Assembly: GCA_036785375.1 (NCBI GenBank)
Contig: JAWMAR010000105.1
Location: 2,418,001 to 2,482,000, forward strand
Length of the DNA stretch: 64,000 bases
Direction of reading: 5' to 3'
From: Leucoraja ocellata
Lineage: Eukaryota
Below the pieces are notes generated by a model. It was given only the letters and a program-made list of their open reading frames with translations, was not told where the DNA came from and did not search any database. Made by a program: the position numbers and the translations under genes. Of the stretch, positions 2,171-63,798 are shown in pieces (the stretch's first letter is position 1; each line of letters opens with the position of its first letter).

Positions 2171-2572
2171 AAGGTAGATAAAAATGCTGGACAAACTCAG
2201 CGGGTGAGGCAGCATCTATGGAGTGAAGGAAAAGGTGACGTTTTGGGTCGAGACCTTTCTTCAGACTGATGGGGGCAGGAAGAAGAAAGGAAGAGGCAGA
2301 GACAGTGGCCGCTGGGGGATCTGGGAAGGGGGGGAGAAAGCAAGGACAACCTGAAATTGCAGAAGTCAATGTTCATACCACTGAGGTGTAAACTACCCAA
2401 GCAAAATTTGAGGTGCTGCTCCTCCAATTTACGTTGGGACTCACTCTGGCCATGGAGGAGGCCCAGGACAGAAAGGTCCGATTCGGAATGGTGCTGAGTT
2501 GGTCCAAGTTGAAGTGCTGAGCCACTGGGAGATCAGGTTGGTTATTGCGAACTGAGCGAAGGTGTTGGGCGA
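2171..2572 (-). mobile_element. Penelope-like element 3' fragment (GIY-YIG endonuclease C-terminus + terminal repeat with hammerhead motif)
   Basis: Minus-strand peptides AQHLRSVRNNQPDLPVAQHFN and EEQHLKFCLGSLHLSGMNIDFCNFR, followed by tcagtctgaagaaaggtctcgacccaaaacgtcacc (2234-2269 reverse). Confidence 0.85.
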
Positions 2573-5266
2573 TTTGGGGAAAATCAAGATTTAACAAATT
2601 TTCAGACATGCCTTGTCTGTTTTAAGATTTTGTTTCCAGTCATGGAGTTTTCATGTATTGGTTTCTAGCTAACTCAGAGTTGCAGAATCTCCTCAAGCAT
2701 AAGGTTACAAGGAACTAATGGAAGTGATCTTTGAATATCCCTCCCAAAATAAATGCCTACAAGATTCTGAAAGACATTGAACAAATCCACTTCTGGATCC
2801 CAGTTTATCCCCACTAAGATCCAATGGCTATTTTGACTATCTGCTTGGTGATCATTTCCTGTTAAATATCACAATGGCAGTTTGTTTTTTGCTGTTTTAG
2901 AAATGTCGTAACTATTTAAATGTCACCAGTACATGATGTCCAGAGATCGTGAATGATAACTCTGACCCCAAGGTATGCACAGTTCCGTTTATCATGCACG
3001 TGCTTCACTTTAAAAAAAATCCTCGTTTAACAGGTCTAATTCTGAATTGGCTTGCACACTGTTTCATCACTACAGGCAGGCAAACTGTTAAGGTGTATAT
3101 TGATTAAGAAGATGCAAAACTTAATCTGCACTTGTTCTCTCCAATACACTTCCAGCAAAAGGCTCAGTAATTAGGTGATTTAATTCAAAACTCCTAAATT
3201 GAAAATGCAGATGTCACCTGTACAGAGCTGGGGTGAGCTACTGACCTTTTAGTGGACAGCAATTTAAATGTTTTATTAACTGTCATGCTTAATTTTTCAC
3301 TTGGTATGATAGCTTTAAATTGGATCTCCTTAGTACTTATTCTGGCCCCCTTAATAATTCTGAAATTTAATAATTCTGCCATTGGTTGTTGCATCTTTAA
3401 CTGCCAGGGCTCTAAGCTCTGAAATTCTCTCTATCATGATCCACTCCTCTTATAATATTCAATCTTTAGGTCACCTGCCACAACATTTCCTGTTGATTCA
3501 GTGTTCACACTGTTGAGAAAGGCCTTGACACTTTCTATATTAAGTGCACAGCATTGTACGTTGTTGGAATTGTAACCAAGCTACACCATATGGTCATTTA
3601 TTACACACATTTCGACTAAAGTTTCTGCATTAACTATTCCCTTTTCCTGCATGTGATTCGACTTGTCTTCAGGGACTGTCCAATTGACCAATTATTTCTC
3701 CCTGTTCTAGTCACACAGGACAAGTTTCTCATCCCTCTTTCTCCCAAGTCCTTCCAACAATGAATGCCATCCTAATTTGTACCTGTAAATGTGCCTTCAT
3801 TTCCAAAAAAAAACAATTATACATGTCATCCAGTTTGTAATTTAAAAAAGCACATGGCTACTGCTGGTTTGACCGATAAAGGCAGATTATAGATTACCGA
3901 ATGGAGAATTTGTGTGAGGTTTGATCTATATAGGCAATTTTAAATGTGGGCAATAGAGATGGGTGAGAGGGTCTTTTACCAAATGTAGAGGGCGTAAAAT
4001 AGGATTAGGGGACAGAGTACAGTGGATGCATTGAAATTAACGGCAGCACCACTATAATGCTGCCAAAACTAAATTGAGTTGGAGGATGAGAGGAAGGAAT
4101 GACTCTCAAATTTGTATTCTGTTTAGACTTTTGCTTAAGATTGTAATTTGATGCTAAGTTTGCTTTGTGCTAACATTGACCTCTTACTCAATTTTCATCT
4201 CTTTCTTAAAGATGTCAATGTAGGATTTTCTATTTTTAACCAGTGACTGCTCCCTGTCTTTGGAACAAAGAAAGCGTCACTTTTAATTTGCTTGTGACAT
4301 CAAGTGATTTGGAAGAATATTTTTAGGTGGGGTCTAAACCAGCGAGTCAAATCGTCATCGACTCCGACTGACTTTTGTATTGGATATGACTGTCTTTACT
4401 GACTCATTCCTCAGGCAGTAATCTGTGTATTCTACTGAGCATTCTACTACGTCACAGTTTTTACAGTGTACCTGTTTTGTTTGCAATGACGGAGTTACAC
4501 AAGGGTGTGGTGTGCTCTTAATTGTAGTTGGCAAAGCAATGTTTGTTTCTGACTCGACATTGCACAATGCATTGTTACAGAAATAGTTTATCTAAAAGTT
4601 ACTGCTGTGTACCTTGTGTTTGGTAACGGAAGTTCCAGAAATTCTTGTGTCAGGTGTGTGCGTAAGAAGGGAGGGTCATCACGTTGTGAGACTAAAAAGT
4701 ATTCGGGAAGAACATTAGCTGAATTGAGGCAAATGTGTCATCTAAATATCAGTGCATACATCTTTGTAATCTACGCAACGTTTCCTGTCACTTGTCTTGC
4801 CAGTGGGCTTCATCAAGGTCACCAGAGGCCAGCAATTCCCTGAGAATTATCTCCCTCTTGCAGGTCTAGTGTCCACACCTACGGGCTGTGGTGTGGTCAC
4901 GTGTTGAGCCGGACATCGCGGGCCTCTTGCCTTGCCCAATCCCATTTGTTGGCATGGGGTTGCTGACCTTGAGTACCAGGGTTTATTTCTCTTAATTACA
5001 GAAACATTCTAAGAAGGTTCAAAGGTGTCAAGGTTGCGGTCTCGGGTCACTGCTTGGGGGCATGCTCTGCTTTAATGAGATAATACTCTGGCATGGTATT
5101 AGCTCAATTGGCCCTTTAAGTGGACATTCAGATTGGGTAGCTGGCTCGATCTTGTGTGGTCCACTCCAGTGTAAAAGGCAAAGCTTTCATTGCCTGATTA
5201 AATGGAGAGGACACAAAGCCTATTTCTGCCTAGCCATATTATTGCATCTGACCAACCTTTAGTTGC

Positions 5267-5520
5267 AGTGCTGGAGTAACATGGTGGGTCGGGCAGCATC
5301 TCTGGAGATAAAGGACTGGTGAAGTTTCTGGTTCAGACCCTTCTTCAGACTTATTATTCACCAGGTGGCTCTTGACAACCTAACTGCTAAAATCATAAGT
5401 CTGAAGAAGAGTCCCGACCCAAAACGTCACCTATTCCTTTTCTTCAGAATGCTGTCTGACTCGCTGAGCTACTCCAGCTTTTTGTCGATCTTTGGTTTAA
5501 ACCAGCATCTGCAGTTCCTC
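5267..5520. mobile_element. Inverted pair of PLE terminal repeats with two hammerhead motifs
   Basis: Antisense arm 5267-5354, 40-nt spacer, sense arm 5395-5520 (ataagt-ctgaaga...aaaacgtc-acctat). Confidence 0.8.
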
Positions 5521-6325
5521 CCATCTCTTATGCTATGTACTACCCGACTCTGGAATTACTGAATGAAAATCTAGATATATGCTTTCTCCTTGGATTTGAG
5601 AGATGTGTGCTGCCATACAATTTATTTTTAATGTTGTAGTTTTCAAACTGCTGATTCATTCTGAAGATTTCTGGTTTACTCCCAAAGTAATCCACCTACA
5701 GCTAGATGCTAGAAATTTGCTGGGCAGCTAATAACTAACCACAGGCTGGGCATTTTCAATAGCATTTGGTGTTTGGATAATGCAAAGTAATTTGATCCAT
5801 CCATCAAAATATTTTTTTTTGCAGGGTGAATGATATTGGAAGCCATTATCACCATTTCCTACAGGTTTGGATGTTTTGAATGCTCTCAGGGGCTCAGTTA
5901 TTAGACTAAAGTGCAAGCATTAGACTAGACTAATTTAATAATCCAGACTCTGTGCAACGCATGACTTTAGCAGCTAGGTTGTCAAGAGTCACCAAATGAA
6001 TAATAAGAGCTCTGGGCCCAGACAAGAAAAGTTGTGTATTTCAGTCAGGCCATCAGTACTTGAAGTCTTGTGGGGTGGTATTCAGATTTGAATGTACATA
6101 ACCATAATGCAGCCCCTCATGGGTTTGGTACTGATGTAATCCTAGCACTTTGCTGTAGACAAATGTTTAAAGCTTGACTGGAGTTGGCGAGGAATTAAAA
6201 ACCAAATACATAAATCAAAGATGACGTTGGCAAGGCGGACGGATGGTGGTCAGAATGGGTTTCGAAGAGGATTTGGGGCTTGGGGAGAACTTCAAGGTTT
6301 TGAAGGTGAAGCTGGCTGTTGTGGG

Positions 6326-7106
6326 GAAAAAAGGTAGCCACCATTTATTATCTAAATGGTGGCCGATTAGGAAAGGGGGGGATGCAGCGAGACCTGGGTG
6401 TCATGGTACACCAGTCATTGAAGGTAGGCATGCAGGTGCAGCAGGCAGTAAAGAAAGCGAATGGTATGTTAGCTTTCATTGCAAAAGGATTTGAGTATAC
6501 AAGCAGGGAGGTTCTACTGCAGTTGTACAGGGTCTTGGTGAGACCACACCTGGAGTATTGCGTACAGTTTTGGTCTCCAAATCTGAGGAAGGACATTATT
6601 GCCATAGAGGGAGTGCAGAGACGGTTCACCAGACTGATTCCTGGGATGTCAGGACTGTCTTATGAAGAAAGACTGGATAGACTTGGTTTATACTCTCTAG
6701 AATTTAGAAGATTGAGAGGGGATCTTATAGAAACTTACAAAATTCTTAAGGGGTTGGACAGGCTAGATGCAGAAAGATTGTTCCCGATGTTAGGGAAGTC
6801 CAGGACAAGGGGTCACAGCTTAAGGATAAAGGGGAAATCCTTTAAAACCGAGATGAGGAGAACTTTTTTCACACAGAGAGTGGTGAATCTCTGGAACTCT
6901 CTGCCACAGAGGGTAGTTGAGGCCAGTTCATTGGCTATATTTAAGAGGGAGTTAGATGTGGCCCTTGTGGCTAAGGGGATCAGGGGGTATGGAGAGAAGG
7001 CAGGTACGGGATACTGAGTTGGATGATCAGCCATGATCATATTGAATGGCGGTGCAGGCTCGAAGGGCCGAATGGCCTATTCCTGCACCTAATTTCTATG
7101 TTTCTA
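6326..7106 (+). mobile_element. Young 5'-truncated CR1/HER1-like LINE (ORF2 C-terminus + 3'UTR)
   Basis: Open frame with RDLGV, LYRVLVRPHLEYCVQFWSP, LEFRRLRGDLIETYKI, TRGHSL, FFTQRVVNLWNSLP; 3' hairpin ggtgcagg...cctgcacc and ttctatgtttcta tail; candidate TSD gttgtggg (6318-6325)/gtcgtggg (7107-7114). Confidence 0.95.
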
Positions 7107-11075: not shown

Positions 11076-12645
11076 TTTTTTGCATTTCTCTATGCTTGGG
11101 TTGGATTTAATGGACTGTTTCACTTTTAATTGTAATGTTGTGTAATCATCAGATTATGGAATCCAATTTTGGAAGCACGTCATTGGAATCCAACTTTCCA
11201 AGCCTGTCATAGTTTGAAGAGACTTGTAACACTTACATTTGGAAGTTGACCTAGAGTGGAGACCACTTTTTGCATATCTTGTTAGTAAAAAAATATTTTG
11301 TGATCCTTCTGCCTAGGCACATGTACCTTGCCGTTGTGGCCAGGACACTGTAGGGCAGCAGCAAGGGCTATAGGGGACTCCGAAGGAATGATTTGAGTAC
11401 TTGTAAGCTCTAGATGAAGAGGCTCATGTTTTTTTTGTTTTTGTTTAAATGGATTGTAACCTTATCAGGTAATTGTCACCTGACTGGATTGACCTTGCTG
11501 AGAGAAGGATCATGTCACATGAAAGTGATCCTCTTTATTGTACTGAGAATGATGCCTCCGTTGCACCATCAGGCACTTCTTTTTGCTTTTGGCTTCCCCT
11601 CCATTCTGTCCCAGCCAAATGAGAATGCTCATGGTTGAGCCAATGCCTTTTGGTTGAAATACTAACTTGCCTTTTGGCTTATTCTCTGACCGCACATTTT
11701 GTCTATGATCAATAATTTAGTGTAAATGGATGCATTGAAACTAATGGATGAAATATGCTTTCATTTAGAATTACAACCCTAAAAAGGCTATATACATACC
11801 TTGCATGTATGTGCTTACTGAGTCATTTAGACTTGCAATCTTAAATAGAGTCTTAAACAGCCTTGTATGCTTACCAAGTCTAAAAGCAGAATTCTAATTT
11901 CAACCTTAAATAACATCCTTCCTCTAGTGCTTCATGATACTAAACGATCCATGCAATATGGTTATTTAGTATTATGATACACGATTTAAGGTTTTAATTT
12001 GAATTCAGTTTTTGGACTTGGTAAGGATGTGCATTTCAGATTAAGAAAGAAATAAATGTGAAAGATTTTGGCTTGCTCCAAATTAATTGCTTTATTTATA
12101 CTATACTATACCACAGGACATGCTGGTAGTCACAAATTAATTTCAATGCATAAATTATGCATCTAATAGATTCTTAAAAATTAGATTTTTTCAAAAAATG
12201 CAATATCATTAATTCTAATCAATTAAAATGCAAATGATACTGCTGTTGCAATCTAATTTGGTAGTGTGCCAGTGCAATGCTGTGGCATTTTTAATTATCA
12301 TTAATATGTGCTATGAGGTGGACATCAATGATCTGTAGTACAGGGAGACTCATGACAAATGTTGAAGACTATCCATTTAAACAGCAAGACTTGAACAAAC
12401 TTCATAATTTCCTGTTGTGATCTCCATGTCGTGAACAGGTATGAGTTCATGTTTTGAAACCTTTTTCCATTGGGAGAACACGAGCAGCTTTTTTAGCACT
12501 ACATGGAAATCTGTTAATATAACATTTCTCCCCTCCAAGCCTCAAAACATCAAATTAGATAAATTTTATCGAGGTGCATTCAGTGAATGGCATTAGATGG
12601 TGGTTTGCACTACAGCAAAATCTAACAATTTAATGTCTAGAAAAA

Positions 12646-12793
12646 GTCACAAAATGCTCAAGTAGCTCAGCAAGTCAGTCGGCGTCTCTGGAGAACATGG
12701 AAAGCAACGTTTTGGCTCGGGATCTTTCTTTTGATTCAAGGGTCTGACCCTCGAAACAGAATCCAGATGGGTCCCAATCCAAAACATTGCCTT
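12646..12793. mobile_element. Degenerate inverted PLE terminal-repeat pair
   Basis: cacaaaatgctcaagtagctcag...caacgttttgg followed by gggtcccaatccaaaacattgcc. Confidence 0.55.
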
Positions 12794-15879: not shown

Positions 15880-15995
15880 CCTCCCTCTTTTCCACCTCTG
15901 CCCCAACTCCATCAGTCTGAAGGGTCCCAACCTGGAACATTTTTTTATTAATTCGCTCCACAGATGCTCTCTGACCAGCCCCCGCCTTCTCGCAC
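15880..15995 (+). mobile_element. Degenerate PLE terminal repeat
   Basis: atcagtctgaagggtcccaacctggaacat...ctccacagatgctctctgacc. Confidence 0.55.
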
Positions 15996-16115: not shown

Positions 16116-16148
16116 ACTGAAACTGTTGAAACTGAACAAGGTGTTAGA

Positions 16149-16235
16149 AGGGTTTCGGCCCGAAACGTTGCCTATTTCCTTCGCTCCATAGATGCTGCTG
16201 CACCCGCTGAGTTTCTCCAGCTTTTTTGTGTACCT
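16149..16235 (+). mobile_element. Young short PLE terminal-repeat insertion, truncated inside the hammerhead
   Basis: agggtttcggcccgaaacgttgcctatttccttcgctccatagatgctgc...tgtgtac; 11-bp TSD aaggtgttaga (16138-16148 / 16236-16246). Confidence 0.88.
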
Positions 16236-17124
16236 AAGGTGTTAGACTTGATGCTTTGTTAACTTCGGCTGGGTGGTTATTATTCATTTTTTTCCCCACA
16301 TTGTTAGTTATGCGAGCTGTGTGACATTTAGATTTTGGATGTTTTAAGCAGCGGTTTATTGTGGTGACTTAATTTGTTGGGAGGGGTTGGCAGGATGATC
16401 ATTTTTCAACACTACAATATACAAATCACCAAGTTTTGAGAACTTGGATAAGAAGTGGGTTGCACATGTGTGAACAATGCAAATCCTACAACCTACTTCT
16501 TATCCAGTTCCCTAAAACCTGATTAAAATCTTCAATTCAGGACCTTATTTATTTGCATTTAAATTGCTTCTCTGCTTCTAGAATAAGCGGAAGTTATTTG
16601 TATATTATTCCAAATGAGAACTGACAAAGACTAGCTCTATAAGCTTTCAATTAAAGTAGTGAACACAACCTGTGCCTTGCAGCCTGTGGTTGTATTAATC
16701 AGATTGGCTTGGGGCCTGTTTTCAATCTTGATGTAGATCTATCATTGCTGTCTGCTGTGGAACAATTCATCCATACTGCCAGTTGTGTAATTTATACATG
16801 TCAAGTTTTTTTTTGTTCCTGGATATCGAATTTGGGGAAGGAGAAGCAGTTTGAGGATGAGGTGACTTTTTTAATCCTGTATTGGAGCTTCTTATCCAAT
16901 TGCTAATTGGATCATGATCCTGTATTTTTGACCGTAAGCCCAGGAATTTAGAAGTCAATATTACTGCTGCCATTGCTGATGTCTACTTGGTTGGGGCTCT
17001 GGGTTGAATTTTTAGTTGCACCATGCATTTTTTCAACTGCTCTGTGGCATAGTATTTGCAGTGCAAAACTGGGACACCTAATCCAGTAGTAAGTGTTTCA
17101 CCTTAACACTTGATGTTGAAGTCA

Positions 17125-23953: not shown

Positions 23954-25877
23954 GGTCGTCAATGTGTGGAAAAAGTTTTAAACTTAAATTTATTAAACAG
24001 GGTAAAAGCCTTTTGCCACTCGTCAAAGAATGAAAGGGCTTTGGATTTCTTCAACTGACCTTTTGCCACTTCCTAATACTTAATTCCATTTATTCCATTG
24101 AAATTGTTGCCTCGTACAAAGCTGTGGTCAAAGATCATGAAGGAGTTGAGAATGTCATGTTAATTTGTTAAAGACCATAGAGCAAAATGTACTGGCAACA
24201 GGGCCATATGGAAGACTGCTATCAAATTTGCATGAATTGGGTGATGTAAGGAGACCTTGGTCTTGGTGACAGCAAAGTAAATGTACAGTTTAACAAATGT
24301 GTCTTGGCTTGTTTTGACTTAAATAGCGTTCACCTTTAACACTGACAGTGGATGGGGCAACCAAGCTGCAAGGATGAGGGAGCTAAGTTTAAAGAATCAA
24401 TCTATGGCCCAGATCATGCTTGTATACCATTCTTCTGATAGCTGACAATATTGGGCAGGTCATTGTAACCCCAGCTTCCTTGCTGTGTGCTGTCAGAGTT
24501 GCTCCTGCTCCACTTGGCACTTGCTCGATTGTCCCTGGCCCCTCTGCTTTACACCAGCCCAGCAAAATCCCATTCCTTTCATTTGGATCACTGACATGCG
24601 TGGGGAAAAATAATTGGTTTGGTGTTTCATTTAGTAGCACTTAAAATTGACTTGTGTAAACAAAATATTTAACATTTAAATCTTTCCAATGTCCAGTGGC
24701 ACATATTGGAAGTGATTGAAAAGGCCACCTGACAACACAACTTATGGCCATTTGGGTAGGACCTCGTCTGCTGCCTGTGAACTGCTCTGCCTCCTGGGGT
24801 GGCTATGGCAGCAATGTATCCAACTTCATTCCACCTGCAGCCCTGTGGACTACTTAAAATACAGATTTGCGCCGAGCATAATTTGTCTCCAATTATCGGG
24901 AGAGGAAAGATGAATGCCTCAACCTGGTGTGAATCTGTTTGCTGTTAAGAAGAGTGTGTTGGAATGGACAAAATGTGGGAGTGGCATTTCTTGGTACTGA
25001 GGGGTTGTTTTTGCCCAAAATCGCTGAACGGATAAAACCTGGACTGGAGCCGAGGGAAGATATTAATCTCACTGAATAAATACATCAAGTAGCACACTGA
25101 TTTATTTGTACTCTGGGATGGGAAGTACATGCATTCCAAGTATTTGGTTTGTGAAAAGCAAGGTATTGCAGGAATGAATAATTCCAACCAGTCATTCCTC
25201 ATTCTTTACCTGAATGTCTTTGCTTAATGTATCCCTTTCATGTACTACTGGGCAGTGTGCATAATCGGATTGCTCACAACAACTGATTTACTGATAATTG
25301 AATCGGGTGATTCATCGTTGTATTGAATGGAATGTGTAGTCAGATACCACAAGTTGCACATCATTCTGTACGCAGGCACGTTTCACTATGTTACAGCAGT
25401 TGCATTGTTTGCTAGTAGATAGTTAATGTTTACAACAAAGCCATACCCCATTCCCATCTGTAGCAATCACCTCTGACAATGCTGGGAATTATGTCTTAGC
25501 ATAAATTAGAAAGGGTTTCAAAATATTATAGTGCTGAATGGTTCAAGAATCACTCGGAACAGGTACCAGCTTAAAATTGTGTAATAGTTGAGATGAATTT
25601 AATATTTCTGTCTGCCCACACGGTCAAATGTCTAACATATCACTACATGCAGGATTCTGAAAAATCAATCCTCAGTTCCTTCTGATAGGCCTGCTGTGGT
25701 GAATGCTCCTGAGGGTTTTAAAAACTGCAGTACATTTTCAGGATAATTTGATTTTTAGTTTTGGCTTGGAGGAGCCCTTGCCCTTCAATGTTGGCGTAAT
25801 ATTAGTTTGGGATCTACTGGCATGCAGGCATTTAGTTGCTGCAGCACATCAAGTGAATTGTACTCTTGGAACCCAAA

Positions 25878-25973
25878 TCCTCACCTATCCACTTTCTCCA
25901 CAGATACTACCTGTCCCACTGAATTACACCAGTATTTTGTCTATCTGGTATAAACCATCATCTGCAGTTCCTT
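25878..25973 (+). mobile_element. Degenerate PLE terminal repeat
   Basis: tcacctatcc...ctccacagatactacctgtcccactgaattacaccag...aaaccatcatctgcagttcc. Confidence 0.6.
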
Positions 25974-28720: not shown

Positions 28721-28912
28721 GGCACAAAGTGCTGGAGTAACTCAGCGGGACAGGCAGCATTCTGGAGAACATGGATAGGTGGCACGGGGTCCTTCTTCAA
28801 ACCCAAAATGTCACCTATCCATGTTCTCCAGAGATGCTGCCTGACCTGTTAAGTTACTCTGGCACTTTGTGTCCATTGTCTATTAACCAGCATCTGTCGT
28901 TCTTTGTTTCTA
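28721..28912. mobile_element. Fold-back PLE terminal-repeat pair
   Basis: ggcacaaagtgctggagtaac...ggataggtggc / gtcacctatcc...gttactctggcactttgtgtcc. Confidence 0.8.
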
Positions 28913-35087: not shown

Positions 35088-35120
35088 GTAAACAAACCAG
35101 CATCTGCAGTTCTTTCCTAC
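35088..35120 (+). mobile_element. 33-bp PLE terminal fragment with 17-bp TSD
   Basis: aaaccagcatctgcagttctttcctac flanked by acattagaaaccaccag / acattagaaactaccag (35071-35087, 35121-35137). Confidence 0.8.
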
Positions 35121-35512: not shown

Positions 35513-35550
35513 CTGCCTAATAGACTAGTCTGTGTACCAAAATGAATGAG

Positions 35551-39333: not shown

Positions 39334-39533
39334 AAAACTATCAATGGAATAACTCAATGGGTCTGGCAGTATCTCTGGAGAACGTGGATAGGTCACTTTT
39401 TGGGTTTGACTGAAGGGTCCCAACCTGAAACATCACCTATCCATGTCCACTAGAAATGCTGTGTGACCCAATAAATTACTCCAGCACTTTTTTAATCTCT
39501 TTTTGGAAACCATCATCTGCTATTCCTGTCTCG
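39334..39533. mobile_element. Fold-back PLE terminal-repeat pair with TSD
   Basis: Inverted arms around ctgaagggtcccaacctgaaacatcacc; TSD tgatagttaaa (39323-39333 / 39534-39544). Confidence 0.75.
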
Positions 39534-40506: not shown

Positions 40507-40717
40507 GTCAGCAATTGGAGTGGCAGTGAATGTCTCATTTACCCTGATCTAACGCATGCATTAACACATGGCCTAGGACAGCATTCAGCATATTGGATGC
40601 CTTTTGAACTGCTTTTAAGAAATCAATGAAACCTGATTTCAGTAGCTTGGTAGGATACCAAAATGCATGGGTTAGATCAGGGTAAATTAGACATTCACTG
40701 TCACTCCAATTGCTGAC
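40507..40717. mobile_element. Palindromic element (MITE-like): 56-bp inverted arms, 99-bp spacer
   Basis: 40507-40562 vs reverse complement of 40662-40717: 3 mismatches in 56 bp. Confidence 0.75.
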
Positions 40718-42053: not shown

Positions 42054-42946
42054 GTGCAGGAAGGAACTGCAGATGCTGGTTTATACCGACGATAGATGCA
42101 AAATGCTGGAGTAACTCAGCTGATCAGGCAGCATCACTGGAGAGAAGGAATGTGTGATGTTTCTGGTCGAGACCCTTCTTCGGAATCTGAAGTCTGCATG
42201 TCTTTCAGAGTCTAGAACAGGGGTGGGGAACCTTTTCATGTTGGAATGCCGCATTAAGCTAGCTGTAATCTAATAAGCCCGCAGCCAAGAAACTTAAATT
42301 AGATATACTTCAAAATGTACATTATTTGGTAAACAAGTCTAACTACTATGTACTAACTTCAAGAAAATGAAAAAAAATTGTTAATTCTAACGTTAATTAA
42401 CCTTTTAATGACTTTGTTGTGACTGCTCTTTGTGGGAAAACATTTGAATATTTGGTTGCAACATGGAGGTACGCAGTTTCAGCTGATCTTCTAGATGAGT
42501 GTCTGTCATTTGTGACCTTAAGGGCGTCCTGATTTGGGTTGGGTAGGAGAATGTAGATTTGCAGCAATAAGCGGTTGAAAAGCAAGAAAGCATTTTCCGT
42601 GCATGTCAAAGTTAACGTACATTCTAGAGTGAGCATAACAGGTGTTAAAATAGCCCTCATGACTTACTAATGTTTGAATTAGTTGAATCTTCTTTTACGA
42701 TTAAAATAAAAATAATAAAAGATGAACAAAAACATATTAATAAAAATAAAAGGATTTGTTCCACAAAATTTGGATTCCTTCAAAAGGCCGCACTTAATGG
42801 CCTAGAAGGCCGCATGTGGCCTTAAGGCCGCAGGCTCCCCACCCCTGGTCTAGAGTCTGATGAAGGGTCTCAACCCAAAATGTCACCCATTCCTTCTATC
42901 CAGGGATGCTGCCTGTCCTACCTACTGAGTTACTCCAGCATTTTGT
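42054..42946. mobile_element. Inverted PLE terminal-repeat pair split by a hAT insertion
   Basis: Antisense arm 42054-42185, sense arm 42855-42946; TSD gtctatggat(g/a)atagtt at 42037-42053 / 42947-42963. Confidence 0.8.
42218..42847. mobile_element. Non-autonomous hAT-Charlie DNA transposon
   Basis: 16-bp TIRs caggggtggggaacct / aggctccccacccctg (1 mismatch); 8-bp TSD gtctagaa / gtctagag fitting the Charlie NTCTAGAN target; subterminal ggccgca repeats. Confidence 0.9.
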
Positions 42947-44386
42947 GTCTATGGATAATAGTTTCTGTGTGGATACTTTCACCCCTTTTATTTAAGGGAC
43001 TAACTGCTGCTGGAGTACTGCAATAATTTGTGATATTCAACATGGAACAATATCAAATTTGGGTAATGAGTCAGTACCAACTATAAACCATCCATCCATT
43101 CCAAACCCTTGCCTGTTCAGCCCCATTTCTATCCACTTCTCCTGCCCTCATGCTTGATGTGGTGGAATATAGTGGTAACTCCAAGCACCAACTCCCAAGG
43201 TCGTGGTGGACGGTGTGTTGGATCTGAGGATCTTTTACCATCCTAAATACCAGAGGATGGGGCTTGTTTGACTGCAGTCGCTATGGGGTGACTGGAAGAT
43301 GCACCACAGCTTGATAACGGGGCCCAATCAGTTAGGATCAATTTGGGATGGGCAATTGGAGTACCATGCAAGATTTGTGCCAATGTCAAATAGAGATTCC
43401 AGTTATATAGATGTTTTCATCATGGTACAAATAAGGGAGGAGCTGAAAGAGGGATAAAGCCTGATGGCTATTTTTGTGCTTGAATGGGATTTGAATTTTC
43501 TAACCTGAACAAATTGAGTCTCAACTGACCAAGAAATGAAAAATTATTGAAATGATACATTTTTATGCAGCATTAAATTTTCAATGCTGAATAGAAAGTG
43601 TTTAATTTTGCACATGTATATTCCAGATTAATGACAACACACTTCCACTCAAGGGTCTCAATTTTCAACCACTCTGTTGGTAATTTTGTAATCCAAGAAA
43701 ATTGTTTTCTCTTCCAAGAAAAATGAGCGTATTGTGGTTGCCTTTAACTAGATGTTTTAATATGAAATGCATGGAACCTGGTGTTTTTCCTGTCCTGCAG
43801 TGTAGTCAGTCAGAAGGGCCATGATGTGATGACTGAATAAAAGCTGCTCTAAAGAGATTCATTGCGATTTAAATCGTCTCTTGCAGTGCTGTCAATAAAT
43901 AATATCCTATTATGTCATCAATGAACTGCAGCATGGGAAGAGGTCACTTTGTGCATTTCAAGTACTAAATCTGATGTAACATGAATTTTAATTTTTTACT
44001 ATGATGTTGAAAAGCTACTTTATGAAATGTTACTAATCGCATCTGAGAGTAATGTTAGATCTAAATGCATGCTTCAGTCAGCTGAGCAGTTCAAATTCTG
44101 GAATTTACAGCAGCAGTAGACAGTTTAATGATATGAACAGAAATCAAATGACATTTATCTTCCCCTCAAATTGTCAGCTATTGCTTTAGCAAATCAGACC
44201 ATAAAATAATTCAGCCATGTTCTTTAGTGGTCTGGCAGAGTATTAGTTGCAACAATTATCTGACACTCAAATTAACAACAAGTTATCAACAACTTCAACC
44301 ATTTCAAGAATTTTTAGCCGAAGGATCTGAAACATAATGGGTGGTTTTGCACCGGGATAGACTGGCTGTCGGGCACCAGTTGAAGT

Positions 44387-44568
44387 GTACACAAAAAAGC
44401 TGGAGAAACTCAGCGGGTGCAGCAGCATCTATGGAGCGAAGGAAATAGGCAACGTTTCGGCCCGAAACGTTGCCTATTTCCTTCGCTCCATAGATGCTGC
44501 TGCACCTGCTGAGTTTCTCCAGCTTTTTTGTGTACCTTCGATTTTCCAGCATCTGCAGTTCCTTCTTA
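44387..44568. mobile_element. Young palindromic PLE terminal-repeat insertion
   Basis: 74-bp arms (44387-44460 / 44462-44535), 1-nt centre, 1 mismatch; 15-bp TSD accagttgaagtgta (44375-44389 / 44569-44583). Confidence 0.92.
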
Positions 44569-45365
44569 ACCAGTTGAAGTGTAATTGATTGTGAGATGAG
44601 GTACTGAAGAGGGAAGGAGCAGCGACTAGTGATCCCAAACGCAGTATATTTCTTAAATACCTCAATCTGCTTTTAGTGTGCAATCTAAATTTTGCTTGCT
44701 TGCATTAGGGAGCTCTTCCTCTAATTAAAGTAGTACTATGGCTGTGTGTATTTGGGGGTAGTTGGAAGAGGGGTGATAAGAGAATGTAACTGGACCTGAA
44801 ACTTGGACATTTATGTGTCCTTTATACAAATGTTTTCCATGAAGATGTGACCATCCCTAGGTATTTTCCAGTGTATTTTGGATGGTAGTGTATCCTGCAA
44901 TATTGTATTCATTTTACTGAGAACAAATATTTCTGACTCTCCTGGAATCTAAATTGAACATAAAAGAAAGATTTGGAAGATGAATCTGTCTTTTGCTCCC
45001 TCGGTATTACAATTCTCTATGGGTTTTACCAAGATAAGTGATTCTCCCCTTTTGATCATTCAATATATCTATATCGATAAAATGAACTTAATGCAATGCC
45101 AAATTTAAACTTCACGCTAAGCTAATACTTTAAGTTCTTAATATAAACCCAACAAACAACCCTACTACAACCAAATCTCTGCCACATTCTGGCTAGGTTT
45201 TAAGGAGAGTTCTAACACCAGCTAAATCTGGTGGAAATATTTATTCTCTCCGATTAGGACGTGAGATAAGTGCTGAATGCTTTTGTTTTGATTTGATTTC
45301 CTTTTTAAATGAAAAGCTCAAATGTTACTTCAGAAATCTAACCAAACATTTGCATCTTTCTGCAG

Positions 45366-46213
45366 CTGAAGGTGACTGTGGGGCGTTTGGAACCAATTCT
45401 CTCCTACGCAAGAAGAAAGGTCTCCATGTGCTGCGACCTGTCTATCACAAGTCAAAGCCTCACATCTTGATTGGAATGCCGCAGGATTTCCGACAGATCT
45501 CTTCCATTATTGACGTGGACATCCTTCCAGAAACTCACCGCAGAGTCCGTCTTCACAAACACGGCTCTGACAAACCACTTGGATTCTACATTCGCGACGG
45601 GGTGAGTGTACGGGTGGCCCCTCAAGGAGTGGAAAAGGTCCCAGGTATCTTCATCTCCAGGCTTGTCCGAGGTGGCTTGGCGGAGAGCACTGGCCTGCTT
45701 GCGGTGAACGATGAAATACTCGAGGTCAATGGGATTGACGTCGCCGAGAAGTCACTGGACCAAGTGACCGACATGATGGTAGCGAACAGTCATAATCTGA
45801 TCATTACCGTGAAGCCAGCAAATCAACGCAATAATGTCATTCGCAGCAGCAGGGCCTCTGGCAGTTCTGGTGTTTCCACGGACAGCAGTCCAAGCCAGCA
45901 CAATGTCATAGCTACTTCACACTATGCCAACCACTACAGTGCAGCTGAAGGAGAGAGTGAAGACGAAGGCGATCTAATAATTGAAAACGACATGCCATCA
46001 TACATTCCAAAAACAATGTTCCCAAACTATGTGAATGGAGATCTTACAAAAAAGCTGCAGCATAACCTCTCCCTAAACAGCCCACTGTTAGACAGCAAAG
46101 AAAACAAATATAAAGGGTCCTTAAACTCTTTGAACATACATAGTGACAGTCCCAGCAAAATAAGTTCAGGCCATGGAAACATGCGAGAAGATGGAACAAT
46201 GATAACACTATAG
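45366..46213 (+). CDS. pard6a: Last coding exon of Par-6 family cell polarity regulator alpha (pseudo-CRIB, PDZ, C-terminal tail)
   Basis: ORF 45293-46213 contains [44 protein letters not shown]...[30 protein letters not shown]...[47 protein letters not shown] and MMVANS match the alpha paralogue. Acceptor 'tttgcatctttctgcag|ctgaa' at 45365/45366 (phase 1). The first ~24 aa of the ORF track are intronic. Confidence 0.93.
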
Positions 46214-47450
46214 ACAATTTTCCTTTATAATCACTTTTATATAACATTTCCAAGTCCTTTGTGGTTAAACCTGACTTAAGCCTTGTTAAGGAGGTTGGAA
46301 TCCAATCAATTTTTACAAGAATATTTGACGCCGATGGTGAATCTGGAGGTTAGAAGTATTTATGAAAGAAAAATCGTAATCGCTTTTATGAAGGATCTTT
46401 GACGAAGAATTGTGCGTATTCGCATCATGTTTCATTTTCGATGGCAATTAAATGTCCAAGATTCTGTTTAGAAGCCAACCTCTCGAACTGCTTCCTGTTT
46501 AATAAAACTGGAATGCATCATATTATGGAGCAGCATTTGAGCAGATGTTACCTGCAATTGGAGACAAATGTATCTTGTGAAATTGCAATACAAGCGTTTT
46601 TAAAAATGCGGGTTCACTATCTTCATATCATGGAACCTGTGCATTTGCATCAGTGACCTCATTGTTACAAATGTAAACTTACAAACTACTTATTCAGCAT
46701 TATTTACATTTATCCAATTTGAGAGCAGGTGTCCCCTTTTTCCTATGGAAAACAATTATGAAACTGATTAAACGTGGACAGGATCTTCAGTGGAGCATAA
46801 ACCTTTCGTGAAGTAGCTGCTCTGCTCCCTAAAAGGATATTTGAGAGCTTTGCAATTTTAAACTTGTGGATTTCCTGCTGTAAGGCAGATTCTTCCTTGG
46901 TGGTATGAGGGTTTCCTGTATTGTATTTTTTTAACCTACCTGTATCTTAAATTTTAAGAAACCCTGCTGGCTTCAGTACCTTTTAAAACCATGCTGCTTG
47001 ACATATTATTTCTGTATTGCACACATTTTGTACTTTCCTCTCCTTAAACAGAGCACTGTTCGACACTGAGATAAGTAACCATCAATAATACTCCAACTAC
47101 TGTGTACATTAAATGACAAAGAGCACTTTTTAAATTGGAATACTTTCAGAAAAAGATCAGTGTAGTTACGTCCAAGGATAATTTTTCTCTACAGCGTACC
47201 ATAAATTAATTAATAATAAAGCTTCTGATTTTTAATCTTTCATTAAATGGATATTCTCACTGACAAACCTAGGGCACACAAGGCAGCATTGTCATCTAAA
47301 GAGCTTCACAATGTCTGTATTTGGGGTTTAAATTCTATGGAAACACTTGGGAATGAATTTGAAGACATTTCACTTTTTATCCACATAAATATCGTGACAA
47401 TTTTGTTGTTGAGGTTTTGGGGTAGTCTAAACTTGACAAACATGTTGGTA

Positions 47451-47665
47451 ATTAGAAGATAGGCACAAAGTGCTGGAGTAACTCAACGGGTCAGGCAGCA
47501 TCTCTGGAGGAAAAAGGATGCATAATGTTTTGGAAATCTGCAGAAGGGTCCCAACCAGAAACGTCACCCGTCCTTTTTCTCCAGAGATGCTGCCTGATCC
47601 GTTGAGTTATTCCAGCACTTTGTGTCTATCTTTGGTATGAACCAGCATTTGCAGTTCTTTTCTAC
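47451..47665. mobile_element. Fold-back PLE terminal-repeat pair in the putative 3'UTR
   Basis: Arms 47456-47520 / 47569-47632; TSD acatgttggta / acaggttggta (47440-47450 / 47666-47676). Confidence 0.85.
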
Positions 47666-48631
47666 ACAGGTTGGTAGTTTAGTATCGGCACGTTCATTTC
47701 CAGCAGAACTGGATGCACTTTGTTAGAGTATAATTGTGCAACTTTACTAATCATTTAAAAATAGTAGAAAATTAAGTATGAGCTCCTTGTATGGACCCTG
47801 TAGGTGATCTTGGTAACCTGGAGCCTTTAACAATTAAAATGGAGAGCACATTGTCAAGACACAGCAATTAATTTTAGTCTTGTCCACCCTGTCAGTTTCG
47901 AGGCCTAATCCATTACTTTAAACCTAGAGTCTGATCATTGTTGACTGCTGGATTCCCAACAATAATCAAAATGTACCTCTCTGCACACTTAAAGTATTAA
48001 GCACAATGACTGCAGTTTTCATAAGCTTCCTGTAGAATGAGCAGCTTTTATTTTCCATCAAAATAAAACTGGGATTGCCAAAATCTTTGATATAACATTT
48101 CCTCTACTTAGTAGTTCTTAAGTGAGGATGAAAACCACTATGGAAATGCTTCCGGTAATTGTAAATTGTCATCTAAATGTTATAGGGCTATAGCAGTCAA
48201 CCATAGTTGTAGGCAAAATGTGATTGATTTTTATTTTTTGGATCATTTTTTGTAATTATTTCTGCTGCACATCACTACATTTAAAGGTTTTTTTGTGGTA
48301 GTTCTGAGCCAGCAGGGTTCCATGGTGGGGTGTGACTTTGCTGAATTTCTTTTAGAACATGTACGTATTTTTTGATTTGTTATGCATCAAATCTGTTTAG
48401 TAAAGAGATGAGAGCAATTTTATCTAACTGGGGATATTTTGTAATTTTTTAATGAAATGAGGGCAGTATTTTTCTTACTTTTTTGTATTTGACCCCACTC
48501 AATCCTTGGTCTCTATTTGACTTCCCATAACCTATACTACCTTGTATTTATCTTATTTAACAGATGAGCAGTCGTGAAGATTGAGATTGCAGAACATTGT
48601 GAATGTTCCATAGATGTACGTTGATTATTCA

Positions 48632-49270: not shown

Positions 49271-49540
49271 AATTATAACTTTTCCTCATGGTTCGTGATG
49301 AATGGGTGGTGGAAGAAACTTGTTAGTTGGTGGTGGCCAATTGTGAGAGAATATTTTACAAGGGATTGCCCTGAGAACCAACTTAGACTCTGAGTCAATT
49401 GGTTTAATGTCATGAGGAAGAATGGATAACAAAGACCAATGGAAAATGTGGTACAAGATTTTAGCAGCAAACAAGTATTTGGAGAATGGGTTCTGTCAAG
49501 CATTCAAGTGACAAATCTGAACACAACCATTCAAATCAGT

Positions 49541-49632
49541 GATGGACACAAAGCAGGTGTAAATCAGTGGGTCGGGCAACATCTCTGGAGAAAAGGAATA
49601 GGTGATGTTGCGGGTCGAGACCCTTCAGACTG
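49541..49632 (-). mobile_element. PLE terminal repeat
   Basis: gatggacacaaagc...ctctggagaaaaggaataggtgatgttgcgggtcgagacccttcagactga. Confidence 0.7.
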
Positions 49633-50704: not shown

Positions 50705-52410
50705 CCAACATCAGCAGTTCCTTGTTTCTACCTAGTCCCGGAGTAACTCGGCTGGGTCATGGATAGGTGACGTTTCGGGTCTGGGGTAGAGGCAGGCAGA
50801 AGTACTGGATGAGGAGGGGGCAGCACAAAGCCTGGCAAGGTGGATATAGGTGAGAGGGTTGTTATTGATGGGCAGATGGTTGAACAAAGACCAGAGATGA
50901 ATAGACAAAGGATGTGAGATAAGGATAGAAGAGTTGAGAATTGTGAAGCCAGTGGTAAGAATTAAGATGGGAGGGGAGAAATGGGTGTGAGTAGAGGTGG
51001 GAAACGGGGAAGGGGGGGGGGGGGGGGAGGTTTGATTAGTTTCCTGAAATTGAATAATTCAATGTTTTTTTTGGGGGGCTGTAAACTTCCCAGGTTACAA
51101 CAAAGTTCTGGTCCTTCAGTCTGCATGTGGTCTCACTCTGGCAACGTAAGAGGTCAGGGACAGAGGGGTCAATATGGAAATGAGGGGACAATTAAAATGG
51201 TTAGCCTGCGGGAGATCCAGAAGGTGGACCGAGCGCAAGTGTTTGGTGAAACAGTTGCTGAGTCTACTCTTTGTCTCGTCGATGTAAAGGAGGTCACATC
51301 GAGATCAGTCAGACACCTCCTTATACTTACCCCTTGAGCCCACAGAGGGGTATGTGACATCCAGCACATTCTGGCATTTCTGCCATCCCCATGTGATCCC
51401 ACCACCAGTCATATCTTCCCATATCCACCACTTTCTGCCTTCCAGAGACTGCTTCTACAACTCCTATGTCGACTAATCCCAACCAATCCTTCCCGAGGTT
51501 TTTTCCCAGGAGATATAAGACCTGTACCTATACCTCCATCCTTGCAGCTATCCAGGGACCTCAACAGTCCTTCCAGGTGAGACAAAGGTTCATGTGCACC
51601 TCTCAGCTCATCTACTATGTACAGTGTTGCTGGTGTCTCCTTTACATCAGTGAGACTTGGACATCTTTTAGCCAAGCACTCTTACTCGGTCTGCTGGACA
51701 TCCCAGTTGCTAGCCATTTTAATTCCTTTCCCATTCTCATAATGGCCTTTCTATCTTGGGCCACATGCAAATTGGAGGAACAACACCTCATATTACACGA
51801 GGGCAGTGACAACCCAATGATATGAACATTGAATTCTCCAATTTTTGGTAACTTACCAAAACCCCTTCCACCTACATTCCTTCCTCTGGCTTCACAATTT
51901 GAAATTCTTCTATCCATATCTCACACCATTTTGTCTTTCATCTGGGAGCTTTATCCAAACATCTGCCTTTTAACCCCTCCCCAACCCCCCTCATCTGCAT
52001 CCATCTATCACTTCCCAGGATAGACAAAAAAAAAATGCTGGAGTAACTCAGTGGGACAGGCAGCATCTCTGGAGAGAAAGAATGGGTGACGGTTCGGGTT
52101 GAGACCCCTCTTCAGACTGATCAGAAGGGTCTCGACCCGATGTCACCCATTCTCTCCAGAAATTCTACCTGTCCTGAGTTACTCCAGCATTTTGTGTCTA
52201 TCTTCGATTTAAACCAGCATCTGCAGTTCCTTCCCACACATACTATCACTTACCAGGCATAGTCCTGCCCCTCCTCTCTTCTAGCTTTCTGCCCACCCAC
52301 CCAAATGCAATCCATCTGATTAAGGGACACAACACAAAATTCCACCTATCCGTGTTCTTCAGCAATGCTGCCAGATCCACTGAGTTACTCCAGCAATTTA
52401 TCTTTTCCTA
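50705..52410. mobile_element. Decayed Penelope-like element with head-to-head inversion and GIY-YIG remnant
   Basis: Sense part 51320-51850 encodes KTCTYTS..IQGPQQSFQVRQRFMCTSQLIYYVQCCWCLLYISET...PVASHFNS...KLEEQHLI (GIY-YIG: LIY...LYIxET); antisense copy of the same 3' end at 50740-51300; terminal repeats at both outer ends. Confidence 0.8.
52020..52242. mobile_element. Fold-back PLE terminal-repeat pair nested in the older PLE
   Basis: Arms meet at ...ttcagactgatcagaagggtctcgaccc; TSD ctatcactt(c/a)ccagg at 52005-52019 / 52243-52257. Confidence 0.8.
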
Positions 52411-53116
52411 TATGTGGCGAATGATCTTTGGACATGCATTGCCTGGGAACAAGTTTACTATGTGTAAAGTGCCAGGGAATATTCATAAAAAGCAGAAGCA
52501 CAATGAATGTTTAAGACTGCAAATTATCTCTTTATAGTAACTGTATAACCATCTGGCCACTATCTCATTTCTGATGTCCTTATTGTGTCAATGTCCTTTG
52601 TTATCTCTTCCCCCACTTGTCATCAGTTGTCATCTGCTTTTCTCTGTGGAGCTAATTTAATTTTTGTTTAATGCCCAAAGCATTAACATAATTAAAAGTC
52701 TTGCATCTAAATATAGGGAGAGTGTTGATCAGTGCGTGCAGTAGAAATGGTGCACGTGAAGCAGATTTGAAGTGTAATGTGCTGCTGCCCTCGGTTACAA
52801 AATACTCACCTGCTTACACGTGACAAAAATCAGGTATTTCAGTTGACATGAAAATTGGTACTTTCTGATGACGTCAGCTAAAATCAGTCTGGTTGAAAAC
52901 TTACCCCATTTTGTGTGAGTGCACATCAGAATATTTTTCTTTTCCTTTATTTTGGAGTTGTACATGGAGGTCTTTCACTCGTTTGATGTCTCCTTAAATG
53001 ATGGGAAGATGCAAACATACATTTGAGAGGCAATCCTGTCAAATAAACACGAGATATCACACATTTACCTTTGGTGGTTCCCATTATCTGCTCTTGGAGT
53101 CATAGATTTTTTTTTA

Positions 53117-58700: not shown

Positions 58701-59348
58701 TATTCCCCTTTTATATAGCACTGGCGGGTTTTCCTTTGATGCTTGCTGCCTTCAACTTTCCCTGTTTGGCCCAATGCTCCAAGCAATTTGCTCTCACCTT
58801 GCCTTGGGAACTCTGGAAAGCAGCTTACATTTCCTTTGCACATATCTGATTCTTTGACATCATATTCTTGTCTTTCCTAGTTCTAACAGTCTTGATTCCA
58901 CTAACAACATAACTGTATGAACACTAAATTCTCCAATTTTAGGTAACCCCACCAATTATTTATTTGTACTTTTCTTTACACTTCGCCCTTCTTTCTTGCG
59001 ACCAAATGCCTCCCAACCCCACCCCCCTCATCTTGGTGTGCAACCAACTCTCCACTATCCCACCCCTCCTCCTCTTCCACCCCCTCCCTTGGGCTTCACT
59101 TTTTACTCCTCTTACTCATCTTCTCTCCTTATCTGACACTCTTTTGTCTCTCTTTCATCTCTGGCCTTTGTCCAACCATCTGTTAATCAAAACCCTCCTC
59201 AGCTATATCCTCCTCTCACTTGCCAGACTGTGTCTCACCACCATCAAGAATACATCTAATGTATTCAAGAGAGTTAGATATAGCTCTTAGGGCTAACGGA
59301 ATCAAAGGATATGCGGAGATAGCAGAAACAAGGTACCAATTTTGGATG

Positions 59349-59440
59349 TTACACAAAAAAGCTGGAGAAACTCAGCGGGTGCAGCAGCATCTATGGAGCG
59401 AAGGAAATAGGCAACGTTTCGGGCCGAAACCCTTCTTCAG
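59349..59440 (-). mobile_element. Young 92-bp PLE terminal-repeat insertion
   Basis: 14-bp TSD accaattttggatg (59335-59348 / 59441-59454); same subfamily as 16149 and 44387. Confidence 0.9.
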
Positions 59441-59444
59441 ACCA
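59407..59444 (-). ncRNA. Minimal type-I hammerhead ribozyme motif, best-preserved copy
   Basis: Reverse strand: ggt-CUGAAGA-a-GGGU(UUCG)GCCC-GAAAC-GUU-gcc; intact core, UUCG-capped helix II, self-complementary AACGUU in place of helix III. Confidence 0.75.
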
Positions 59445-59973
59445 ATTTTGGATGATCATCCATGATCATATTGAATGGTGGTGCTGGCTCGAACGGCCGA
59501 ATAGCCTACTCCATCACCTATTTTCTATGTTTCTATCTTAGAAACATAGAAAATAGGTGCAGGAGTAGGCCATTCGACCCTTCGAGCCTGAACTGCCATT
59601 CATCTTGCTTCCAGCTCTCTCCCACCTACCACAATCGGTCTGAAGGGTCCCCACCCAAAACGTTGCCTATCCATGTCCTCCAGAGATGCTGCCTGACCTG
59701 CTGAGTTACTCCAGCACCTTGTGTTCTCCGCAATATTCCAGCATCTGCAGTTCCTTGTGTCTATGTAAGACATTAACTCTGTTTCTCTTTCCACAGATGC
59801 TGCCTGACCTGCTGAGTATTTCCAACATCTGATGTCCATACTGTTTTTCATTTCCAGCATCCATAGTATTGTTTTTGATTTTGACTTTAGCTGTTGCACG
59901 GCATCCAAGTCTTTGTTAATTCAATTCAAGTCAGTCATATTAAAGTACAATAGGGACCTGGTCCATTGGGGAA

Positions 59974-60250
59974 GTGTAGGAAGGAACTGCAGTATCTGGT
60001 TTAAATCGAAGATGGACACAAACGCTGGAGTAACTCAGCAGGTCAGACAGCATCTCTGGAGAAAAGGAATAGGTGACGTTTTGGGTCGAGACCCTTCTTC
60101 AGACAGAGTTAGGGGAAAGGGAAATAAGATATACAAGGTGATATAGAGAGATATTGAACAAATGAATGAAAGATATGCAAAAAAAGTAACGTTGATAAAG
60201 AAAACGGGCCATTGTTAGCTGTGGTCTAGGTGAGAACAAGTTATTCAGAT
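59974..60250 (-). mobile_element. PLE terminal repeat plus 3'UTR
   Basis: gtgtaggaaggaactgcag...aggtgacgttttgggtcgagacccttcttcagac. Confidence 0.8.
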
Positions 60251-62370: not shown

Positions 62371-62749
62371 ACTTTTCCCTCTATCTGAAAGCTAATCTTT
62401 TCCCGTAAAAGAGCTTGGAACAGGGTCTGTTTCAGGAGTCTGACGTCGGTCACATAAACAATGCGCCTGTTTAGTGTAGCTGACGGAGTGTAATGAGGAC
62501 CTCCTGTACAGCAATATTGATCTAAGATCAAGAGCTGCAGAAAATGTAACTGCTGTAACAAGACTAGCTGCTGTTTGCAAATACATGCACCAATCTTGTA
62601 ATTCACATAGCACGTAGCAGCTGGAAAGTCTGCAAAGATTTAAATATGACTGGTAAAATTTTAATCTCATCCTGTTAAGAATATTAGGATTGACACCTGC
62701 TGGAACGGATTTCAAATCCTGAATTACACCATCACTTTTTCAAAATTAT

Positions 62750-63065
62750 CATAAGACATGGGAGCAGAATTAGGCCATTCGGCCCATCGAGTCTGATCCG
62801 CCATTCATTCATGGCTGATCTATCTTTTTTATCTTAACCTCATTCTCCACGTGACCTTTGACGCCCTCACTAATCAAGAATCTATCAATCACTGCTTTAA
62901 AAAGACCCAATGACTTGGCAATAAATACCAAAGATTCACCACCCCCTGGCTACAGAAACTCATCTTCATCTCAATTCTAAAAGGTACGTACTTTCATTCT
63001 GAGGCTGTGCCCTCTGGTCCTAGACTCTCCCACTACTGGAAACATCCTGTCTCTGTGCATTCTAC
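62750..63065 (-). mobile_element. CR1 3' fragment
   Basis: gagcagaattaggccattcggcccatcgagtctg...ctgaggctgtgccctctggtcctagactctcccac. Confidence 0.75.
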
Positions 63066-63667
63066 CTCTGCCTTATAGCTAAAGCAACCTGAGAAACTTG
63101 TGCTTGACTATATTTTTCCTCCCAAATGGCTCATTTAGTAATTTTCCGAGCATACAACAAGGAGAATAAGGTCTGGACAATTGCTGAAGGGATTTTGACA
63201 ACCAATGCTTAACAAGCCTTTGCTTGTACAGGTACAACTCTATAATCATTGCAATAGAAGCCATATAGAAGCCTGATGTGATTCTAGATTAGCTAATAGA
63301 GAGTTTAAAATGTTGCTTTAAACCTACAACATTTTTTTCATCTAATTCTTCCACCTTTCACTGAGATTAAAACAGCCCATTGAAAATTAAATATTTACAC
63401 ATTTTCGATAGGGCTATGAAAACAGCACAAGCTGTTCCAATGGAAATTACGTTTTTATGTAATACTGTTAATTATGGACTCTGAAAATCATAATGATTTT
63501 AGTGTTGGAGCAGCTAATCATCCCATCGAGTAGTACAGCCCCATGCAAGAGCGATCCAGCGAGTCCCACTCGTCTGCCCTTTTTCCACGCTCTGCAACGT
63601 AATTATTCCCCTTTAAGCATTTATCCAGTTCCCTTCAAAACACAAAATTAAGTTTATTAAAAAAAAA

Positions 63668-63798
63668 TTGCAGATGCTGGAATTCTGAAACCAAAACAGA
63701 AATTGTTGGAAAATCTAAAAAGGGGTCCTGACCCAAAAAGTCCCCTATCTAGGTTCTCCAGGGATGCTGCCTGACTCCCTCAGTTACTCCAGTTTTGT
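63668..63798. mobile_element. Degenerate PLE terminal-repeat pair
   Basis: tgcagatgctgg... followed by ggggtcctgacccaaaaagtcccctatc...gatgctgcctgac...gttactccag. Confidence 0.6.

Follow-up and report, generated by a model that had tools for sequence, protein, structure and literature searches.

Short head-to-head repeats in a Leucoraja ocellata contig as 5′-truncated insertions of a Penelope-like element, with a probable origin from priming at both target ends

We analysed a stretch of 64,000 nucleotides from Leucoraja ocellata (GenBank assembly GCA_036785375.1, contig JAWMAR010000105.1, positions 2,418,001 to 2,482,000 of the forward strand), called the window below, in which a short repeat recurs as single arms (solos) and as inverted head-to-head pairs. 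The window repeats are 5′-truncated insertions of a Penelope-like element (PLE) that is intact in the same genome and encodes a reverse transcriptase (RT) and a GIY-YIG endonuclease, and the repeated unit is the hammerhead-plus-tail module of that element. A profile of the unit, built from the window copies, gives 35 matches, all at the places named in the initial annotation or only tens of bases away, 27 of them scoring at least 25, and none in five shuffles or in the reversed window; the feature is real. Solos outnumber pairs among these copies. There are eight short pairs, the number that the initial annotation had given as a minimum, and seven of them carry the tail on exactly one arm, in agreement with its description of one full-tailed arm and one stopping about 30 nt short; the remaining pair (12644–12792) is too degraded for tail scoring. 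The initial annotation counted eight long target-site duplications (TSDs), and eight of 11–19 bp score at least 10, a score reached by 0.4% of 462 mismatched flank pairs; five of them enclose pairs, two enclose solos and one encloses a tail-only fragment. At three pairs (5267, 12644 and 28721) no TSD is detectable.

The pairs, to which no strand is assigned, differ in age and completeness. Those at 5267–5526 and 28721–28910 have a tailed right arm (profile; TSD scoring), and the degraded pair at 12644–12792 is recognized by the profile, its right arm with E = 0.015. TSD scoring gives duplications of 11–13 bp at 39334–39532, of 14–16 bp with mismatches at 47450–47666, and of 15 bp at 52013–52240, a pair nested in the 3′ untranslated region (UTR) of an older long copy. 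At 42055–42952 the left arm is tailed, the TSD is 17 bp long and the head-to-head junction is split by a 630-bp insertion (42218–42847). This insertion has terminal inverted repeats and its own 8-bp TSD with one mismatch, and we take it to be hAT-like. The pair at 44387–44568 is young and perfectly palindromic, its arms meeting in hammerhead stem II, with a tailed right arm and a 15-bp TSD (44375/44569). Contigs from four DNA or unlabelled sequencing runs of four studies enter this palindrome from both sides; thus, it is shared and not very recent. Its empty site is not readable from those contigs, and no RNA run is listed as a holder among the public runs.

Old solos on the plus strand, all found by the profile, lie at 15880–15979 (including part of the 3′ UTR), 25870–25974 (tailed) and 59640–59761 (tailed), and the profile further marks tail-less solos at 35285–35515 (plus strand, including 3′ UTR), 49530–49627 (minus) and 63714–63800 (plus), a tailed solo at 59975–60104 (minus) and a degraded fragment at 59788–59861 (plus). 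Two tail-less solos are young: 16146–16236 on the plus strand, which is 98% identical to the autonomous unit and has an 11-bp TSD (16138/16236), and 59348–59442 on the minus strand, with a 14-bp TSD (TSD scoring). An insertion of the tail only occupies 35088–35124 (plus) with a 19-bp TSD containing two mismatches (TSD scoring). The longer solo at 2165–2576 (minus) comprises the end of the GIY-YIG open reading frame (ORF), the C-rich 3′ UTR and the hammerhead core without a tail (profile; 78% identity in tblastn with the autonomous ORF). A probable old long head-to-head insertion, with no strand assigned, spans 50712–52411; it has GIY-YIG remnants on both strands and is interrupted by the pair at 52013. 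The coding remnants of the family in the window are the GIY-YIG pieces at 2353–2576 (minus), 51185–51304 (minus) and 51395–51816 (plus).

The unit was numbered from the C of CTGAAGA (+1), and a cut after +28 is predicted by analogy with the minimal hammerhead (PMC4209133). Its CTGAAGA...GAAACGT(C/T) core matches by sequence the minimal type I hammerheads reported in metazoan PLEs (Cervera and de la Pena 2014, PMC4209133), and is a putative ribozyme; the palindromic 15.2–16.2 pair and the bulged base before stem II are features that it shares with them. Rfam reports no hammerhead at the gathering score in the window, and the predicted RNA folding of the unit is no better than that of shuffles.

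The initial annotation had asked for an autonomous RT and GIY-YIG partner, and one was found as intact 3,946-bp tandem units with open frames of 1,233 codons and an ORF of 1,221 amino acids. In these arrays the C-rich 3′ UTR of one copy is followed by the unit and then by the ATG of the next copy at about +165. The endonuclease remnant of the window, used as query, leads to loci where the unit lies in most cases 3′ of the ORF on the same strand, and an RT segment leads to many open frames of more than 1,000 codons. The 1,221-residue ORF matches Pfam RVT_1 (E = 1.6e-6) and GIY-YIG (E = 0.013), both below the curated cut-offs, with motifs that are directly readable; a protein search returned 263 longer relatives, and most of those listed carry precomputed RT matches and some GIY-YIG matches. 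A CCHH-type endonuclease signature is present (IYCVRCSRC...IYIGET, with histidines downstream); PMC8557442 defines endonuclease-positive PLEs by a CCHH motif whose two cysteines lie between GIY and YIG. The layout of such PLEs is likewise found, with tandem or partial-tandem arrays forming pseudo-long terminal repeats (pLTRs), an inverted copy and a tail at one end. The CX4CXXC at residue 1088 corresponds to the Neptune-type CX2-5CxxC linker between RT and endonuclease, which is also described in reduced form in Nematis (PMC8557442). Judged by its motif layout, the element is a Neptune-type PLE; no named Neptune reference sequences are among the protein-search matches.

Young window copies are 95–99% identical to this element, and the repeat is continuous with its RT/GIY-YIG ORF, so the PLE origin and RNA-derived nature proposed in the initial annotation are supported. 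One 35-mer of the unit has 68,289 exact matches genome-wide (control, 0), a figure that exceeds the number of loci since the assembly has duplicated regions. Because the intact partner is this similar and kilobase-sized pairs follow the same end rule (see below), the short palindromes fall at the lower end of the size range of the products of the autonomous element, and the separate non-autonomous fold-back system, similar to miniature inverted-repeat transposable elements (MITEs), that had been proposed is not upheld. The element, present as identical intact tandem units, is recently active.

The ends of the arms were counted in exact matches to the core, taken in positional order along contig 1 up to the hundredth; once 11 arms in duplicate regions had been dropped, 89 arms from about 79 insertions remained; five long arms with unresolved 5′ ends were left out of the tally of tails and TSDs in pairs and solos. 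Arms end at about +93 without the tail or at about +130 with it. About 17 of the 79 insertions are head-to-head, and 16 of these 17 pairs are flanked by a TSD of 13–19 bp (null, 0.3%). Exactly one tail is present in 16 of the 17 pairs, where independent choice at the solo tail rate (20/57) predicts 46% (p = 3e-5). This one-tail rule holds in 30/30 pairs of a wider set and in 58 of 62 palindromes joined in stem II, none of which is two-tailed; 12 duplicates and one unparsed locus had been dropped from the latter set, and two of the dropped loci, L014 and L021, later turned out to be independent insertions. Multi-kilobase pairs have the same ends: in six of seven, one arm stops at +94 to +97 and the other at about +129 to +133 with matching flanks, and the short end of the seventh falls outside the sequence analysed. 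Among the solos, 37 of 57 have their 3′ end at the short-arm site.

TSDs accompany 57 of the 62 palindromes (a few duplicates are still included in this survey) and are 9–20 bp long with a mode of 14–16 bp. Their starts are rich in A/C and their ends in G/T, which is what priming by both target ends on AC-rich sites would produce; at the tail end of insertions, target and RNA share short overlaps. Of the ten duplicate loci that were located, six lack the insertion and keep one TSD copy, and in four of these six the missing insertion is a pair; one further locus was not found. The window itself is duplicated about 611 kb upstream (G000:C105:1807001-1877000) with about 98% identity, either as a haplotype or as a segmental duplicate, and several insertions differ between the two, including a 766-bp LINE piece (6338–7104) and a 268-bp piece (33854–34122). 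The copy at 59348 is missing from this duplicate together with 10 extra bases; therefore, the site is not clean. Loci L007, L014, L021 and L010 and the window copy at 59335–59454 arose independently at one position within the 3′ part of a LINE-like repeat, which suggests a target preference.

The points at which arms meet are more variable than their outer ends. Of 30 junctions, 14 contain fillers, four are blunt, eight overlap by 1–2 nt and four by 7–15 nt; in the same 30 pairs the tail-less arm is longer in 13, the tailed arm in nine, and eight have equal arms. The hot-spot junction, a 15-nt quasi-palindrome at +11 to +25 in stem II, has 4,425 exact sites genome-wide, compared with about 27,900 arms (all loop types) that keep the whole hammerhead, and it joins only 2/17 unselected pairs. 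In the stem II palindromes, rare variants are mirrored between the arms 13 times where 0.7 are expected, and the subfamily site agrees between the arms in 58 of 62, from which both arms are read as copies of the same template variant. A T at +17 occurs in 28/50 junction sites (counted by eye) and in none of 100 listed arms with a complete hammerhead; genome-wide, 280 complete arms carry it, about 1% of the total, as against 94 with a control change. It is found on both subfamily backgrounds (25 and 13), and recurrent origin at the junction fits this better than one master copy.

The 5′ ends of the 89 arms are concentrated at the hammerhead, as the initial annotation had anticipated, and not spread uniformly: 49 lie at −8 to +10, around its upstream edge, 29 further upstream, six in stem II and five near the cut site. 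With this peak at −8 to +10 and the predicted cut after +28, cleavage does not set most ends. The proposal that the ribozyme region sets the template end is not supported as far as cleavage is concerned, while the hammerhead region as a marker of the template end is plausible. The peak probably reflects a start of the template RNA at this place, giving run-off ends resembling strong-stop products, which is the least certain step of our scheme; the boundary of a protein-bound region is nearly as likely a cause. A sequence-fixed stall of the RT at the hammerhead edge is disfavoured, since among 58 ordinary arms extending to −2, 29 stop at −8 to −2, as against one of 49 loci whose arms continue into the ORF. 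The sequence TCAGTCT at the presumed RNA 5′ end is initiator-like. In D. virilis Penelope, an internal promoter is described in the corresponding region, as is an intron ending at helix I. The −2 hot spot has a pyrimidine tract and a CAG, but a splice acceptor at this place is not supported: 47 arms share no upstream exon, their fillers are short and in many cases duplicate local sequence, and in 100 listed arms the single donor-like site of the element is never joined at −2. Judged by eye, there is no clear excess of a cap-derived G. One arm (G000:C1:401860, L079) begins exactly at +29 and is preceded by sequence resembling the ORF start, as if the RT had switched to another RNA on reaching a cleaved 5′ end.

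From these patterns we consider it rather probable that the pairs arise when reverse transcription is primed from each of the two 3′ ends at a staggered target cut and the two cDNAs are joined end to end. The cut would leave 3′ overhangs of about 14 nt; one target end would prime at the tail site and the other about 35 nt upstream, and one ribonucleoprotein (RNP), probably dimeric, would use both start sites. Two cDNAs grown from two 3′ ends would give outward-facing element 3′ ends, a single TSD and 5′ ends that meet inside, and the strictness of the one-tail rule implies that the two start sites would be used together. The cDNA ends would then be joined bluntly, through short fillers or by microhomology, often through the self-complementary stem II sequence, and solos would result where only one of the two cDNAs survives. 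The PAc protein is reported to cut and extend both strands in vitro from two start sites that bound the tail, to be a predicted dimer and to do without hammerhead cleavage (PMC11167929). More tentatively, and with somewhat less than even confidence, double-ended priming may be obligatory in PLEs, with one RNP making two cDNAs from two RNA sites, so that the inverted pLTR, the tail and the TSD would stem from one event; the hammerhead region would then serve as a template boundary and annealing site and not as a nuclease, and the same machinery would repeatedly spawn retrozyme-like mini-arrays from its own UTRs.

Several observations weigh against priming at both ends or limit its reach. The sample covers the first 6 Mb of one contig, about 78% of its insertions are solos, and a TSD was found in only 28 of 57 solos. 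Perfect stem II palindromes are unevenly placed on contig 1, with none in the first 8.4 Mb and 48 of 50 listed ones beyond 18 Mb. Mirrored variants could also come from correction of one arm by the other after insertion, and in two of eight pairs the duplicate copies of a locus carry different loops, so part of the loop variety may date from after insertion. At junctions with a loop, sequence by itself does not tell two annealed cDNAs apart from fold-back. As for the run-off step, an RNA start at the hot spot predicts full-length copies beginning there, and only the one locus in 49 does; long templates would therefore have to be read-through or circular.

Fold-back was the main route in the initial annotation: a tail-primed cDNA would snap back near the hammerhead and be copied, and the copy would join the other target end. 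It accounts for the mirrored variants, stem II can form a 6-bp hairpin at the very place of the 4,425 exact junctions, and junction palindromes in rotifer PLEs have been read as self-priming (PMC3846280). However, the short arm stops where most solos have their 3′ end, zero-loop junctions exist, and more than half of the 30 junctions are filled or blunt; fold-back from the tail also predicts a longer tailed arm, which the arm lengths do not show. We therefore consider this route unlikely and do not retain it as the principal one. Chances are slighter still that a perfect palindrome acts as a self-propagating non-autonomous master, transcribed and reinserted whole. The 30 best matches, at 96–100%, share one junction, although the query selects for such copies, and the T at +17 is common at junction sites and absent from the listed complete arms. 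Against a master stand the mixed orientation of the loop relative to the tail (TCC 16, GGA 14), the T loop on two backgrounds, the rarity of the stem II junction in unselected pairs and the lack of any recurring arm-specific variant except one beside a T run.

It is very improbable that hammerhead cleavage makes the template 5′ end, so that arms and inversions end at the cut site. Exact starts at +29 occur in 4/89 arms, in one pair at both arms, and in 5/30 very short arms; yet the very short arms are spread over +24 to +36 without a dominant peak at +29, and the 5′ ends as a whole lie mostly elsewhere. For the anole element, cleavage is reported to be dispensable in vitro, with no reads ending at the cut (PMC11167929). 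Cleavage is largely refuted as the main route and may explain about 5% of the arms. A DNA-transposon MITE with terminal inverted repeats (TIRs) would suit the palindromic look and the high copy number, but it has next to no probability: the TSDs vary from 9 to 20 bp where a fixed length is expected, the ends are asymmetric with one tail in place of symmetric TIRs, most copies are single arms, and the sequence runs on into the RT/GIY-YIG ORF. This answers the check on DNA-transposon signs suggested in the initial annotation, and the MITE explanation is refuted.

Priming from both target ends has a relative in L1 twin priming, in which the second target strand primes reverse transcription and an inversion results; there the two cDNAs copy different RNA segments, whereas here the same segment would be copied from two fixed sites. 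Published insertions of endonuclease-positive PLEs likewise have an adjacent inverted, 5′-truncated head-to-head copy, a 30–40 bp tail at one end, a TSD around the whole unit and tandem or partial-tandem arrays (PMC3846280, PMC8557442, PMC2377424). In contrast to these, most insertions here are only 95–200 bp long and number tens of thousands, which lets the one-tail rule and the breakpoints be counted, and the TSD mode of 14–16 bp compares with 8–10 bp in the rotifer examples. In PAc (Poseidon) of the green anole, too, the tail is framed by two RT start sites and a hammerhead lies just upstream (Frangieh et al. 2024, PMC11167929); however, its ORF starts at hammerhead stem II, while the ATG here follows the tail, and the parts of that study consulted do not derive inverted pairs from coupled priming. 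Solo hammerhead motifs throughout genomes and opposite-strand dual motifs 100–700 bp apart are described for metazoan PLEs (PMC4209133), in a work that does not map ends, TSDs or junctions, which are mapped here.

Thus, the inverted pLTR, the one-sided tail and the TSD (PMC3846280), opposite-strand hammerhead pairs (PMC4209133) and two RT start sites (PMC11167929) are already published for PLEs. The full-text literature, in a search with Repbase, Dfam and subscription journals outside its range, yielded no description of this repeat family or of coupled dual priming in PLEs, and we found no paper on the strict coupling of one tail per pair. PMC8557442 describes the origin of the tandem and inverted PLE structures as undefined, and PMC11167929 leaves it unvalidated. 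Intact tandem units together with tens of thousands of short products make this open integration step testable, and precise predictions follow for the strand used at each start site, the stagger length and the place of cDNA joining. Such palindromes are also prone to mis-annotation as MITEs.

Mini-arrays occur elsewhere in the genome as tandem units of 241–560 bp, up to five in number and some with a head-to-head partner (L308, L312, L314, L321, L329, L336–L342 and others, e.g. G000:C1005:229200-232900); they are rare, and none lies in the window. Their units join the ORF start to the 3′ UTR around the hammerhead through many different junctions, none at splice signals, and the unit 3′ ends recur near +242 and +264 to +267. 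Non-LTR retrozymes are likewise short hammerhead units derived from PLE pLTRs (PMC7229834; bioRxiv 10.64898/2026.07.22.740005), but they are described as tandem units, in contrast to the solos and inverted pairs of the window. The mini-arrays match this description and appear to have arisen repeatedly from the element.

Two further features were noted in the window. An exon encoding a PDZ domain (Pfam E = 3e-12) lies at 45197–46213 with repeat copies around it, and presumably belongs to a PARD6-like gene. Two unrelated inverted repeats, of 42 and 56 bp with 95% complementarity, lie at 743–1085 and 40507–40717.

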